Source of the DNA: Escherichia coli
GTDB taxonomy: Bacteria; Pseudomonadota; Gammaproteobacteria; Enterobacterales; Enterobacteriaceae
Direction: 5' to 3' (one strand)
Assembly (NCBI RefSeq): GCF_003334255.1
Contig: NZ_QOWU01000006.1
DNA length: 64,000 bases
Part shown: piece by piece, positions 44,300-49,298 of the stretch
Layout: every line of letters begins with the position of its first letter
Numbering within the stretch: the first letter of the stretch is position 1
Translations under genes and position numbers: made by a program
The notes under the pieces: model-generated
The model's input: only the letters and a program-made list of their open reading frames with translations
What the model was told of the DNA's origin: nothing
The model's database searches: none

Positions 44300-44995
44300 T
44301 TAATCACGCTTTTCCAGCAGGGTCCGGTAAATCAGACCACCGATAATGCCGCCGACAATTGGCACCACCCAGAAGAACCACAGTTGTTCTAATGCCCAGC
44401 CGCCCTGGAAGATAGCAACCGCGGTGCTGCGCGCCGGGTTAACAGAAGTGTTAGTCACCGGAATACTAATTAAGTGAATCAGGGTTAAGGCCAGACCAAT
44501 AGCGATCGGCGCAAAACCTGCCGGCGCGAATTTGTCGGTTGCGCCGTGGATCACCAACAGGAAACCTGCACTCAATACCAGTTCAACTACCAGCGCGGAA
44601 AGCATGGAATAACCGCCTGGTGAATGCTCGCCATAACCGTTAGAAGCAAAACCGCTGGCTGCCGCGTCAAAACCCGTTTTACCACTGGCAATTAAATACA
44701 GCAGCGCCGCTGCAACAATACCGCCGACAACCTGGGCAATTACGTAGCCAACGACTTCTTTTGCCGGAAAACGTCCGCCAGCCCATAAACCAATAGTGAC
44801 CGCCGGGTTAAAATGACCACCAGAAATATGACCAACAGCAAAGGCCATCGTCAGAACGGTCAGACCGAACGCCAACGCCACGCCGGCAAAACCAATGCCT
44901 AATTCCGGGAAGCCTGCGGCCAGTACAGCACTACCACAGCCACCAAAAACAAGCCAGAAAGTACCAAAACATTCAGCTGCTAATTTTCTGAACAT
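44300..44995 (-). CDS. aqpZ: Aquaporin Z
   Basis: ORF 44300..45001; ATG at 44995 gives 231 aa; two NPA motifs. Confidence 0.9.
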
Positions 44996-45420
44996 ATCCA
45001 CCTCAATTAAAAATTGACCCTGTGAAAAATATGGTCGTTTTATAGGGTCGTCGTAAAAAAGTGACGACGGAAATAATGCGCGGCTATTTTAAAAACGAAG
45101 GCGAGTCATTCACCAGATAAATAAATCCAGTAAATTTGATTTAGGGCAACAGCGGGTTGCCCCATATAGTCATTTGTCTGATTGACAGTGTAGTGCACGC
45201 AAAAGATTTAATCCTTTAGGCGTAATAAAAAATAATTTATCATGCTAATTATTTGATTTTGTTGTTTTTGCAGACTTATCAGCAAGAGGGAGTATAACGC
45301 GATTATTCGCTCATTTTTCAGACATTTGCCATGCTTAAATGTGATGTCATCACGTATTAGCAAGGCCTTTCCCGTTATACTGCCAGCGTAAAGGATAAGT
45401 CACATATTTCTGGAGGGGAT

Positions 45421-47079
45421 ATGATTCTTGAGCGCGTTGAAATTGTGGGTTTTCGCGGTATCAACCGTTTGTCGTTGATGCTGGAACAAAACAACGTCCT
45501 GATTGGGGAGAACGCGTGGGGTAAATCCAGCTTGCTGGACGCCTTAACTCTGCTGCTATCGCCAGAATCAGATCTCTACCATTTTGAGCGCGACGATTTC
45601 TGGTTCCCGCCGGGAGATATCAACGGGCGAGAACATCATCTGCATATTATTTTGACCTTCCGCGAATCGCTGCCAGGCCGACATCGGGTTCGCCGTTATC
45701 GGCCGCTGGAAGCGTGCTGGACGCCATGCACCGATGGCTATCACCGTATTTTTTATCGTCTGGAAGGGGAGAGTGCGGAAGACGGCAGCGTGATGACACT
45801 GCGCAGTTTTCTCGATAAAGACGGACATCCGATTGATGTCGAGGATATTAACGATCAGGCACGCCATCTGGTGCGTTTAATGCCGGCGCTGCGCTTGCGT
45901 GATGCCCGTTTTATGCGCCGTATTCGTAACGGCACGGTGCCAAATGTCCCTAATGTGGAAGTCACCGCGCGCCAGCTCGATTTCCTCGCCCGTGAGTTAT
46001 CCTCACATCCGCAAAATCTCTCTGATGGGCAGATTCGTCAGGGACTTTCCGCAATGGTACAGCTGCTTGAGCATTATTTCTCTGAGCAGGGGGCCGGACA
46101 GGCGCGATATCGTTTAATGCGGCGGCGAGCCAGCAATGAGCAACGAAGCTGGCGCTATCTGGATATCATCAACCGGATGATTGACCGACCTGGTGGGCGC
46201 TCGTATCGGGTTATTTTGCTCGGCCTATTTGCTACTTTGTTGCAGGCAAAAGGCACATTGCGACTGGATAAAGACGCCCGTCCATTGTTGCTGATCGAAG
46301 ATCCAGAAACCCGTTTACACCCCATTATGCTTTCAGTTGCCTGGCATCTGTTGAATCTTCTGCCATTGCAGCGCATTGCCACCACCAACTCGGGTGAGTT
46401 GCTTTCGTTAACGCCGGTAGAGCATGTTTGCCGACTGGTACGTGAGTCCTCGCGCGTTGCCGCCTGGCGTCTGGGGCCGAGTGGCTTGAGTACCGAAGAT
46501 AGCCGACGCATATCCTTTCACATTCGTTTTAACCGTCCGTCATCGCTGTTTGCACGCTGCTGGTTGCTGGTGGAAGGGGAAACGGAAACCTGGGTTATCA
46601 ATGAACTGGCGCGTCAGTGCGGACATCATTTTGATGCCGAAGGGATCAAGGTCATTGAGTTTGCCCAGTCCGGGCTAAAGCCACTGGTTAAATTTGCCCG
46701 CCGAATGGGGATTGAATGGCATGTACTGGTCGATGGCGATGAAGCAGGGAAGAAATATGCCGCTACGGTACGCAGCCTGTTGAATAACGATCGGGAAGCC
46801 GAACGAGAACATTTAACGGCGTTACCGGCGCTGGATATGGAACATTTTATGTATCGCCAGGGATTTTCCGATGTGTTCCACCGCATGGCGCAAATCCCGG
46901 AAAATGTACCGATGAATCTACGCAAAATTATCTCGAAAGCGATCCATCGCTCTTCCAAACCCGATCTTGCCATTGAAGTGGCAATGGAGGCAGGACGTCG
47001 TGGTGTGGACTCCGTACCGACGCTGCTGAAAAAAATGTTCTCACGCGTGCTGTGGCTGGCGCGCGGTCGCGCGGATTAA
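45421..47079 (+). CDS. ybjD: YbjD, OLD-family protein: N-terminal ABC-type ATPase plus C-terminal Toprim nuclease domain
   Basis: 552 aa ORF; Walker A GENAWGKSS (nt about 45505-45531), Walker B LLLIEDPE, Toprim Glu motif LLVEGETE (about 46567-46590) and DxD motif VLVDGDEAG (about 46726-46750). Confidence 0.85.
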   Translation: MILERVEIVGFRGINRLSLMLEQNNVLIGENAWGKSSLLDALTLLLSPESDLYHFERDDFWFPPGDINGREHHLHIILTFRESLPGRHRVRRYRPLEACWTPCTDGYHRIFYRLEGESAEDGSVMTLRSFLDKDGHPIDVEDINDQARHLVRLMPALRLRDARFMRRIRNGTVPNVPNVEVTARQLDFLARELSSHPQNLSDGQIRQGLSAMVQLLEHYFSEQGAGQARYRLMRRRASNEQRSWRYLDIINRMIDRPGGRSYRVILLGLFATLLQAKGTLRLDKDARPLLLIEDPETRLHPIMLSVAWHLLNLLPLQRIATTNSGELLSLTPVEHVCRLVRESSRVAAWRLGPSGLSTEDSRRISFHIRFNRPSSLFARCWLLVEGETETWVINELARQCGHHFDAEGIKVIEFAQSGLKPLVKFARRMGIEWHVLVDGDEAGKKYAATVRSLLNNDREAEREHLTALPALDMEHFMYRQGFSDVFHRMAQIPENVPMNLRKIISKAIHRSSKPDLAIEVAMEAGRRGVDSVPTLLKKMFSRVLWLARGRAD

Positions 47080-48068
47080 CCGCGAAACATCGTGGCCATT
47101 TGTGGCTGAATAGCGTCGAGCATCTCATAGCGCCGACGGTATTCAGCCCGTTTTTTACTGGCGATTTCGGCAATCTCTTTTCGTGCTATCTGTGCTGGAA
47201 GGCGGTAATGGCGTTCAGCATCACATACGCCGCCAACCGATTCCCAGAAAGCGTTGTAATCAGCGTGGATCTTGCCTTCTTTATCGCGATAACGCAGGCT
47301 GCGGTAAATATGCGTTTCATTGCTGACGGCAATAATCTGCTCTACCTGCAAACGTTGGGCAAACAGACAGGCCGCTTCCATCACGAGGCGTTTGGGAAAT
47401 AGCCCGTGGCAGGCTTTCGTCGCATTCTGGATTTCCTGATGTGGAATTTCCCATTTTGCGCCTTGCAGTCCGCCAATAAACATCGTTCTTTTCCCCTGAT
47501 ATTCACACAGGGTAAACGTGATCTCTGCCAGAGGAATACCTTCGCTGTTGCGGAACAGGATTGTGCTGTCACCTTCTTTATCCATTGAGATCATCATGGT
47601 CAGCTCAAGCGTGAACTGCTCGCCGTTTTTGCCTTCCAGCTTCGCCAGTTGCAGCCCGGGGGTATTCAAATATAAGCTGAATTCTTCCGCCGACATACAT
47701 TCGCGGAGTAACGCATAATGGTAACGTAACGCCTCCAGCAATTGCTTACGGCTAAGATTCGCCGCAAGGTAAGGGCGATGCAGACGCACAGGCAGTCGCG
47801 GCTGGCGCGTTAACAATACATTGAGATTAGGCCAGTGGGAAAGTTCGTTCATCCACTCAACGCTTAAACGCGGCATAATCAACGAGCGCAGCAAAAATTT
47901 CTGGCGAAAACTACGGCGATGCCAGAATTTACCCGGCCGACACTGTCCACGTGCCAGACTAAGAAAAAGTGACAGGCTGCTGAGAGATTCAGATGGCGTA
48001 AAGGTCCGTTCAGTTAGCTGCGACATATTCATGAAATCAATGGTTATACATGGCGTCGATTTCACCAT
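47076..48068 (-). CDS. ybjX: YbjX (DUF535, VirK-like)
   Basis: 330 aa ORF; convergent with ybjD with overlapping stop codons (TTAA). Confidence 0.8.
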   Translation of the reverse strand: MVKSTPCITIDFMNMSQLTERTFTPSESLSSLSLFLSLARGQCRPGKFWHRRSFRQKFLLRSLIMPRLSVEWMNELSHWPNLNVLLTRQPRLPVRLHRPYLAANLSRKQLLEALRYHYALLRECMSAEEFSLYLNTPGLQLAKLEGKNGEQFTLELTMMISMDKEGDSTILFRNSEGIPLAEITFTLCEYQGKRTMFIGGLQGAKWEIPHQEIQNATKACHGLFPKRLVMEAACLFAQRLQVEQIIAVSNETHIYRSLRYRDKEGKIHADYNAFWESVGGVCDAERHYRLPAQIARKEIAEIASKKRAEYRRRYEMLDAIQPQMATMFRG

Positions 48069-48182
48069 TGCGTATCTTAACCAAACATCAATAGTGTGAT
48101 TACTAACGTAAATTTTAGGGTTTTGTTGATATTTCGTTGAAGTTAATGACCCGGATTGGCATATGGAGTATTCAGAAAATTT

Positions 48183-49298
48183 ATGAAAAAGCGGAAAACC
48201 GTGAAGAAGCGTTACGTTATTGCGCTGGTGATAGTCATCGCCGGACTGATTACGTTATGGAGAATTCTTAACGCACCCGTGCCGACTTATCAGACGCTGA
48301 TTGTGCGCCCCGGTGATTTACAGCAAAGCGTGCTGGCGACCGGAAAGCTGGACGCGCTGCGTAAGGTTGATGTGGGCGCGCAGGTCAGCGGTCAGTTGAA
48401 AACTCTGTCGGTGGCGATTGGCGATAAAGTAAAAAAAGACCAGCTTTTAGGGGTTATTGATCCTGAACAGGCTGAAAACCAGATTAAGGAGGTCGAAGCA
48501 ACGCTGATGGAGCTACGTGCGCAGCGGCAGCAGGCGGAAGCGGAGCTGAAACTGGCGCGGGTGACGTATTCCCGTCAGCAACGTCTGGCACAAACGAAGG
48601 CTGTTTCACAGCAGGATCTCGACACCGCCGCGACGGAGATGGCTGTGAAACAGGCGCAAATTGGCACCATTGACGCGCAAATCAAGCGCAATCAGGCTTC
48701 TCTCGATACGGCTAAAACCAATCTCGATTACACTCGCATCGTTGCCCCGATGGCCGGGGAAGTCACGCAAATCACCACTCTGCAAGGCCAGACGGTGATT
48801 GCCGCACAACAAGCACCGAACATTCTGACGCTGGCAGATATGAGCACCATGCTGGTAAAAGCGCAGGTTTCTGAAGCGGATGTAATCCACCTGAAGCCGG
48901 GGCAAAAAGCCTGGTTTACGGTGCTTGGCGATCCACTGACGCGCTACGAGGGGCAAATCAAGGATGTACTACCGACGCCGGAAAAGGTTAACGACGCTAT
49001 TTTCTATTACGCCCGTTTTGAAGTCCCCAACCCCAATGGTTTGCTGCGGCTGGATATGACTGCGCAAGTGCATATTCAGCTCACCGATGTGAAAAATGTG
49101 CTGACGATCCCTCTGTCGGCGTTAGGCGATCCGGTTGGCGATAATCGTTATAAAGTCAAATTGTTGCGTAATGGTGAAACACGCGAGCGTGAAGTGACGA
49201 TTGGCGCACGTAACGATACCGATGTTGAGATTGTCAAAGGGCTTGAAGCGGGCGATGAAGTGGTGATTGGTGAGGCCAAACCAGGAGCTGCACAATGA
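48183..49298 (+). CDS. macA: Macrolide export membrane fusion protein MacA
   Basis: ORF 48156..49298; ATG at 48183 gives 371 aa. Confidence 0.9.

Follow-up and report, generated by a model that had tools for sequence, protein, structure and literature searches.

YbjD of Escherichia coli is a vertically inherited, stand-alone OLD-family protein with a predicted Class 2-type nuclease module

Most characterised members of the OLD family, in which an ABC ATPase is joined to a Toprim nuclease domain, defend against phages. Here we analyse a member encoded in Escherichia coli, YbjD, whose gene lies in a 64,000-nucleotide stretch of DNA (contig NZ_QOWU01000006.1 of assembly GCF_003334255.1, referred to at its full length as the window). 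Amongst the described systems with which YbjD can be compared, GajA belongs to Gabija, a mobile two-gene system in which it occurs together with GajB, and its DNA binding and cleavage are inhibited by ATP (as cited in PMC13261556). The Old protein of phage P2 is prophage-borne, kills recBC cells and cuts tRNA. The OLD protein of Vibrio cholerae (Vc OLD; Patel and Seed 2025, PMC12392090) is stand-alone like YbjD; its defence is independent of RecBCD perturbation, it is countered by a phage inhibitor, and it was described as a highly diversified member of its own clade. For structural comparison, the Class 2 proteins of Burkholderia pseudomallei (Bp OLD) and Xanthomonas campestris (Xcc OLD) are available (PDB 6nk8 and 6njv/6njw/6njx, respectively) as well as the Class 1 protein of Thermus scotoductus (Ts OLD). 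Ts OLD cannot hydrolyse ATP without K34, E276 and H310, and H283 takes part in the reaction. A member with an apparently cellular role, in cell-cycle progression and not in defence, is Cran1, an archaeal OLD ATPase/nickase that is conserved as a lineage trait of the Sulfolobales (PMC12796447).

YbjD (b0876) itself was the query with which Schiltz et al. (2019) collected OLD homologues, and E. coli was placed in that study among the Class 1 members, i.e. those encoded by a single, isolated gene (PMC6755086). A micropublication by Atahualpa et al. (2026) studied ybjD directly, proposed the name oldB and reports the gene to be non-essential; plaque assays of the Keio ybjD deletion against the BASEL phage collection were unchanged, and arabinose induction of ybjD at a non-toxic inducer level lowered the plating of Bas18 and Bas20 and reduced the plaque size of Bas64-68 (PMC13261556). 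The ATPase half of the protein (residues 1-377) was necessary and sufficient for these weak over-expression effects, which were unchanged when the Toprim domain was deleted or its acidic residues were mutated, while the K35A variant retained the phenotype and was more toxic (PMC13261556). The toxicity of YbjD is RecBC-independent, and a recBC(ts) host is killed by P2 Old but not by YbjD (PMC13261556). Literature searches on DUF2813 and b0876 returned nothing further. The initial annotation of the locus, which had been made from the sequence alone, took the function as not established; in view of the 2019 study and the 2026 phenotypes this is partly out of date, although ybjD is still among the remaining uncharacterised genes of E. 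coli K-12. As a whole, the observation underlying that annotation is correct and its interpretation essentially right, while the gene and its classification were already published. As far as consulted, PMC6755086 and PMC13261556 do not mention that the gene is core and vertically inherited, how constraint differs between the domains, or that the C-terminal region is of Class 2 type, as described below. These points are comparative, and they sharpen the question of native function without answering it.

The gene in the window is E. coli ybjD (b0876), already described and not new: it is the same gene as ybjD/oldB of E. coli K-12, its architecture and neighbours match those given in PMC13261556 and PMC6755086, and the object itself is no different. 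As annotated initially, the open reading frame list of the window contains an intact frame at 45421..47079 (+) with an ATG start, encoding 552 aa followed by a stop codon. The DNA is 100% identical to the chromosome of E. coli strain G1/2, where the gene is annotated as 'ybjD: ATP-dependent endonuclease', and the ybjD DNA is 99.9-100% identical to E. coli records carrying the ybjD annotation. With aqpZ, ybjX and macAB as its neighbours, ybjD is a single, isolated gene and thereby has the context that defines Class 1. PADLOC gave no match for the products of the flanking genes ybjE, aqpZ and ybjX, and the flanking genes are not defence genes.

Profile searches with Pfam and PADLOC confirm both of the domains that had been proposed, an N-terminal ABC ATPase with Walker A and B motifs and a Toprim domain at the C-terminus with a catalytic Glu and a DxD motif. 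Pfam matches are to DUF2813 (residues 1-375, E 1.8e-159), OLD-like_TOPRIM (PF20469; residues 376-440, E 7.8e-16) and AAA_15 (residues 1-49). PADLOC returns many GajA profiles (best E 1.6e-79) as well as an Old profile (1.9e-24), and NCBIfam assigns no family to YbjD, its only matches being sub-threshold ones to P-loop proteins (MAD3, RecF, PtuA). The motifs are found at the expected places, with Walker A GENAWGKS at residues 29-36, the Walker B/D-loop segment LLLIEDPETRLHP at residues 289-301, and the Toprim motifs LVEGETE (E385, E389) and LVDGDEAG (D438, D440). The segments of the gene are as follows:

45421..47079, plus strand: ybjD (oldB) coding sequence, 552 aa plus stop (open reading frame list, RefSeq annotation as ybjD, Pfam and PADLOC matches)
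45421..45900, plus strand: N-terminal lobe of the ABC ATPase, residues 1-160, with E30 (invariant in the family) and K35 in the Walker A motif GENAWGKS at 45505-45528
45901..46251, plus strand: helical insertion in the ATPase, residues 161-277, with helices 177-195, 202-220, 240-255 and 259-277 in the AlphaFold2 (AF2) model
46252..46491, plus strand: C-terminal lobe of the ABC ATPase, residues 278-357, with Walker B E293, D294 and E296 and D-loop H300 at 46285-46323, and Q317 and the H-loop position N323 at 46369-46392 (column counts, hhalign to P2 Old, motif definitions of Ts OLD)
46492..46557, plus strand: linker helix, residues 358-379, with invariant R362, H367 and R379
46558..46830, plus strand: Toprim core, residues 380-470 (PF20469, invariance, lowest nonsynonymous rate of the segments, secondary structure)
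46831..47076, plus strand: alpha4 and C-terminal three-helix region, residues 471-552, with metal B ligands D472/E474 and invariant K513-P514 (fold match to 6njw and 6nk8)

The ATPase contains the residues by which OLD ATPases are recognised (Walker A Lys, Walker B acid, D-loop His, H-loop His/Asn), and hhalign pairs E293, H300 and N323 of YbjD with D299, H306 and H332 of P2 Old. The Toprim domain likewise has the metal A Glu and DxD and the metal B ligands of the family; by conservation and family correspondence, E385, D438 and D440 are assigned to metal A and E389 to metal B, corresponding to E398/D453/D455 and E402 of P2 Old. In the AF2 monomer model, an insertion of four helices is seen at ~177-277, the same place as the helical insertions of Ts OLD and GajA, and by its position this insertion may correspond to the OLD dimerisation domain of Ts OLD.

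Both catalytic centres of YbjD are intact and under strong purifying selection. Measured against E. albertii, the ratio of nonsynonymous to synonymous substitution rates (dN/dS) is 0.016 for ybjD, compared to 0.022 for aqpZ, 0.024 for macB and 0.073 for ybjX, and at larger distances the dN of ybjD (0.06-0.15) is at the level of ybjE, aqpZ and macAB, with that of ybjX at 0.26-0.5. Within the protein, dN is lowest in the Toprim domain whichever species are compared (0.005-0.095). The least conserved segment is the helical insertion (residues 161-277), which has both the highest dN and the lowest column identity in the family alignment. This alignment comprises 56 full-length members with 28-53% identity and contains 22 invariant columns, 12 of which fall into the Toprim core, 5 into the C-terminal region, 3 into the linker helix and 2 into the P-loop. 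E385, E389, D440, D472, E474 and K513-P514 are invariant in all 56 members and D438 is kept in 55, while the ATPase residues are less strictly conserved (K35 in 50/56, E293 in 51/56, H300 and Q317 each in 55/56). In the 80 intact orthologues from Enterobacteriaceae introduced below, the catalytic residues of both centres are invariant without exception. In the family at large, the two-metal residues of the Toprim domain are retained down to ~30% identity.

This degree of conservation bears on the reading of YbjD as a decaying relic or dead scaffold, in which the ATPase half alone would matter and the Toprim domain would be vestigial. Such a relic would fit the sole functional assays available, where Toprim deletion and acidic mutants behave like wild type (PMC13261556), but it is contradicted by the conservation itself: the Toprim domain is the most conserved part at both evolutionary depths, with 12 of the 22 invariant residues and the lowest dN, and 80 of 80 orthologues are intact. 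We therefore consider it highly improbable. That the Toprim domain is most constrained yet dispensable upon over-expression suggests instead that the selected function lies outside the published phenotypes, which are probably a side effect of the ATPase/DNA-binding half. This is a warning on how they are to be used, as the most conserved part of YbjD is uninvolved in them and the real function has probably not yet been assayed.

At the Walker A loop (G-E-N-x-x-G-K-S, 45505-45528) we observed that the second position is a Glu, E30, in 56 of 56 family members, i.e. it is kept above the Walker A lysine (50/56); the same loop reads GPNGAGKT in Ts OLD and GMNDIGKT in GajA.

The nuclease modules of the two OLD classes can be told apart by structure. 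In the Class 1 enzymes Ts OLD and P2 Old, the module lacks both an insert helix between alpha3 and beta4 and a helical domain at the C-terminus, and the catalytic R/K follows the metal B Glu at a distance of 7 residues (Ts R487, P2 K550), whereas in the Class 2 enzyme Bp OLD the equivalent lysine, K562, is supplied by the helical domain (Schiltz 2020, PMC7049728). YbjD differs from Ts OLD and P2 Old in these respects: position 481 (E474 + 7) is occupied by Gly throughout, and the basic residue that is invariant comes later, at K513. In the AlphaFold model (pLDDT 88.5), an extra helix (458-464) is placed between alpha3 and beta4 of the Toprim core and three C-terminal helices lie between residues 500 and 547, with K513 starting the second. 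The C-terminal model (residues 356-552, pLDDT 94.8) superposes on Xcc OLD (6njw) with a TM of 0.72/0.68 and on Bp OLD (6nk8) with about 0.70; TMq is 0.67-0.72 for the Class 2 C-terminal regions, 0.42-0.56 for Bacillus cereus GajA and 0.38 for the Class 1 protein Ts OLD (6p74). The C-terminal sequence profile gives values of 2.2e-7 for Bp, 1.6e-6 for Xcc and 7.7e-4 for Ts OLD. The predicted structure of YbjD thus departs from the Class 1 features of Ts OLD as well as P2 Old, and the predicted fold of its nuclease module resembles that of the Class 2 proteins Bp and Xcc OLD. YbjD is Class 1 by gene context with a predicted Class 2-type nuclease module, so that the class 1 architecture given in the initial annotation holds for the stand-alone gene and not for the predicted C-terminal region. 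A weak match of the C-terminal profile to Panoptes mCpol (E 0.05) was treated as chance.

The gene context of Gabija is not found with YbjD, which in contrast to GajA is chromosomal, core and vertically inherited. No GajB/UvrD-like helicase lies beside ybjD or at the 90 relatives' loci examined, which include 82 annotated or genome loci besides that of E. coli, those of Yersinia and Salinivibrio, and those of seven distant members, and no retron reverse transcriptase/non-coding RNA or split AriA/AriB partner adjoins ybjD or its relatives in Yersinia, Salinivibrio and the seven distant members. Representatives matching only in part (residues ~255-550) had been expected to be true GajA, but P0212, P0184 and P0216 are stand-alone DUF2813 proteins, and no close relative linked to GajB turned up. 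The name has also been used for a gene with such a partner: in the literature on Salmonella genomic island 1, S024, labelled 'ybjD', adjoins S023 (uvrD), which together form a Gabija-type helicase-endonuclease pair. By annotation transfer, the name ybjD has thus also been given to helicase-linked OLD genes on mobile islands.

The type of nuclease module also speaks to the substrate. YbjD might act on RNA, by cutting tRNA or processing stable RNA in the way of P2 Old, PARIS AriB or RNase M5; P2 Old cuts the tRNA anticodon arm, the second cut being ATP-dependent (PMC12445682), AriB is a Toprim tRNA nuclease, and the active site of Bp OLD is arranged in the manner of RNase M5 (PMC6755086). The YbjD module, however, resembles Bp and Xcc OLD, which are DNA cutters in vitro, the C-terminal region of P2 Old past the DxD motif does not align with YbjD, and YbjD, unlike P2 Old, is not lethal in a recBC(ts) host. 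An RNA substrate appears unlikely to us.

The distribution of ybjD is that of a vertically inherited core chromosomal gene and not of an accessory defence system. By megablast, the gene is present in 5425 of 5426 complete E. coli genomes (95-100% identity, median one copy), and its GC content of 0.51-0.55 is the same as that of the surroundings, in keeping with the single core-chromosomal gene of normal GC proposed at the outset. A species-level scan with one genome per species yielded 80 loci, nearly all of them from Enterobacteriaceae (Escherichia, Citrobacter, Salmonella, Klebsiella, Enterobacter, Kluyvera, Kosakonia, Buttiauxella, Atlantibacter and others). YbjD is 79-99% identical over these loci with all 552 residues matched in 79 of the 80, all 80 Enterobacteriaceae orthologues are intact, and the gene order ybjE-aqpZ-ybjD-(ybjX)-macA-macB is kept across them. 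In Yersinia, the order is poxB-hcr-hcp-lysO-ybjD-ybjX-macAB-cspD-clpSA. The identity of YbjD tracks host phylogeny, decreasing from 99 to 90 and 85%, then to 64% in Yersinia, 45% in Aeromonas, 42% in Vibrio and 40% in Photobacterium. Amongst 50,697 phage records no member of the YbjD family was found, the sole match being a 2-kb unannotated fragment. Full-length matches in plasmid records are chromosome-sized records, chromids or mis-assigned contigs and not mobile copies, and true plasmids carry only distant OLD/AAA ATPases with less than ~35% identity and partial coverage. Distant DUF2813 proteins from Vibrio, Motilimonas, Succinivibrionaceae and Acidobacteriota stand alone amid metabolic/housekeeping genes. 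Defence systems are usually accessory and show fast turnover. The accessory, patchy or mobile occurrence, or location in a defence island, by which anti-phage systems are recognised is not seen for ybjD. YbjD is a rare case of an OLD nuclease that is core to a whole bacterial order.

It is nevertheless possible, though we hold it to be clearly less than an even chance, that YbjD is a resident anti-phage gene that became fixed in Enterobacterales, and that at its native level it detects infection (for example by way of a phage protein or of depleted nucleotides) and turns its Toprim nuclease on phages outside the tested panel. This would agree with the role of most characterised OLD members, with the GajA profiles being the best PADLOC matches, and with the effects of over-expression at a non-toxic inducer level on Bas18/Bas20 plating and Bas64-68 plaques (PMC13261556); Vc OLD moreover shows that a stand-alone bacterial OLD protein is able to defend (PMC12392090). 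Set against it are the strict core status, the kept synteny, the housekeeping-like dN and the absence of defence neighbours and mobile copies, as well as the deletion lacking a phenotype against BASEL and the dispensability of the Toprim domain and acidic residues (PMC13261556). YbjD also parts from Vc OLD here, as defence by Vc OLD needs ATPase and nuclease residues (PMC12392090), whereas the YbjD phenotype tolerates loss of the Toprim domain and of K35 function (PMC13261556).

Regarding detection, the share of genomes in which DefenseFinder detects Class 1 OLD is cited as a mere 0.45%, as opposed to YbjD in nearly every E. coli genome and in all 80 loci of the species-level scan; that model evidently omits the DUF2813 clade. 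Within the wider family, we noted giant DUF2813/OLD relatives of 1000-1867 aa (P0151, P0161, P0163, P0164, P0176, P0196 and others; L089 5001-9314). The N-terminal ATPase lobe of P0161 is interrupted by ~220 inserted residues, and ~490 residues lacking a Pfam match come after its Toprim domain. P0164, a bacterial protein, is encoded by a stand-alone gene close to polA, ddl and yicC. In one metagenomic lineage (L092 832-4882), a family-B DNA polymerase gene begins 47 nt after the DUF2813 OLD gene on the same strand, and a PhD/PIN toxin-antitoxin pair precedes the OLD gene; as a single observation, the polymerase neighbour hints at a link to DNA metabolism.

A resident cellular role of YbjD on nucleic acids appears somewhat more likely than classical defence, because of its vertical core inheritance and the constraint on its Toprim domain, with Cran1 as a precedent. 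The likeness to Cran1 is one at family level: Cran1 is essential, cell-cycle regulated and belongs to another OLD class and another domain of life, while ybjD is non-essential. We put at about even the chance that YbjD is a stand-alone, ATP-gated OLD enzyme whose resident, cellular role requires its nuclease, in preference to a mobile anti-phage system. In the mechanism we propose, the ABC ATPase head, which is of the SMC/Rad50/RecF kind and carries a helical insertion probably serving dimerisation, is fused to a predicted two-metal Toprim nuclease. The ATP-bound head would hold YbjD restrained, and nucleotide-free or ATP-depleted YbjD would engage nucleic acid and license nicking or cleavage by the Toprim domain, comparable to the ATP inhibition of GajA. 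The selected function would then be a resident surveillance or maintenance of nucleic acids for which the nuclease is needed. D294, the residue after the Walker B glutamate (D/E in the family), suggests a slow, switch-like ATPase, and in favour of ATP gating are the higher toxicity of K35A with the phenotype kept, the sufficiency of the ATPase half and the deletion lacking a phage phenotype (PMC13261556).

Several points weigh against this proposal of a resident, ATP-gated cellular nuclease. The ATP gating, substrate and oligomeric state it assumes are drawn from relatives and from one short paper; ybjD is non-essential and is not known to have a repair or growth phenotype; and over-expression at a non-toxic inducer level acts in a phage-specific manner, which fits defence (PMC13261556). 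The DUF2813 family as a whole is patchy (gammaproteobacteria, some Acidobacteriota), which is unusual for a true housekeeping function, and there is no match to a LexA box in 45002-45420, window-wide matches being at chance level. As dS is saturated for most species pairs, the reliable measures of constraint are dN and the ratio to E. albertii only. Finally, the correspondence of K513 to Bp K562, which is suggested by predicted structures and conservation, is not one of residue-level superposition; for each of Ts OLD, GajA, Bp OLD and P2 Old, hidden Markov model and HH alignments of the C-terminal region reach no further than the DxD motif.

A broader version of the resident cellular role, which we put forward tentatively and at clearly under even probability, is that the DUF2813 clade represents a bacterial OLD lineage taken over for a cellular job, as a counterpart to Cran1. 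The protein would be a vertically inherited, ATP-gated nickase/endonuclease whose substrates are nucleic acids of the cell itself, such as replication intermediates that have stalled or broken. Its origin would lie in a nuclease of the Gabija type (Class 2) that shed its helicase, and the anti-phage effect would be a by-product of over-expressing the ATPase half. If the selected function is cellular, OLD proteins could not automatically be read as defence genes, and the context-based split into Class 1 and Class 2 would be shown not to follow structure.

Downstream of ybjD, an open reading frame of 330 aa at 47076..48068 (-), annotated in RefSeq as a VirK/YbjX family protein, is convergent with it, as the initial annotation had pointed out. 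The junction and the translation start of ybjD carry the following features:

47076..47079: TTAA, overlapping stop codons of ybjD (+) and ybjX (-), a palindrome read from the sequence that leaves no intergenic space
45412..45416, plus strand: Shine-Dalgarno sequence GGAGG, 4 nt before the ybjD ATG, read from the sequence

Because the stop codons overlap, the ybjD and ybjX transcripts must overlap as well, and an RNA-seq survey counts the two genes among its convergent excludons (PMC12288877). Transcription of ybjX could interfere with the expression of ybjD.

In all E. coli records listed by megablast, ybjX lies under the ybjD match. Co-occurrence across species, however, shows that ybjX is not an obligatory partner of ybjD. 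It is missing in 19 of the 80 syntenic loci, including those of Klebsiella, Raoultella, Superficieibacter and some Enterobacter, and in 18 ybjX-less loci macA follows ybjD directly after a gap of ~70-210 bp (ybjX-less loci: L023, L027-L029, L031, L039-L042, L045, L047-L049, L055, L058, L061, L064, L076; L066, in which an unrelated insert of ~1.1 kb precedes a retained ybjX, is counted as ybjX-present). Outside Escherichia, YbjX is 44-74% identical where YbjD is 79-91% identical, and its product has no PADLOC or NCBIfam match. In view of its absence from 19 of 80 loci, its fast divergence (dN 0.26-0.5) and the lack of a PADLOC or NCBIfam match, ybjX was rejected as a functional partner; it is a neighbour with possible regulatory cross-talk.

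With regard to regulation, the LexA-box scan gave no support for SOS regulation of ybjD. A promoter and terminator scan of 44900-48300 found no consensus promoter upstream of ybjD and only weak terminator-like sites, and was uninformative. In uropathogenic strain UTI89, the genes listed as responding to a cathelicidin-derived peptide by induction include ybjD (UTI89_C0880; value 1.31) along with arnF, evgS and marR (PMC6737244); this may be an envelope-stress or PhoPQ-linked response.

The surroundings of ybjD vary in two further ways. About 1.1 kb of extra DNA is located between ybjD and ybjX in L066, L069, L071, L072 and L079 (~7660-8800 of the 13.6-kb loci; Kluyvera and another member of the Enterobacteriaceae). 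On the upstream side, aqpZ is cut to a remnant of 51 residues in Escherichia sp. MOD1-EC7003 (L004 5377-5529) and no aqpZ separates ybjE from ybjD in Salmonella diarizonae or in several further genera (L022, L041, L045, L057, L064, L074, L075), with ybjD being intact in all of these loci.

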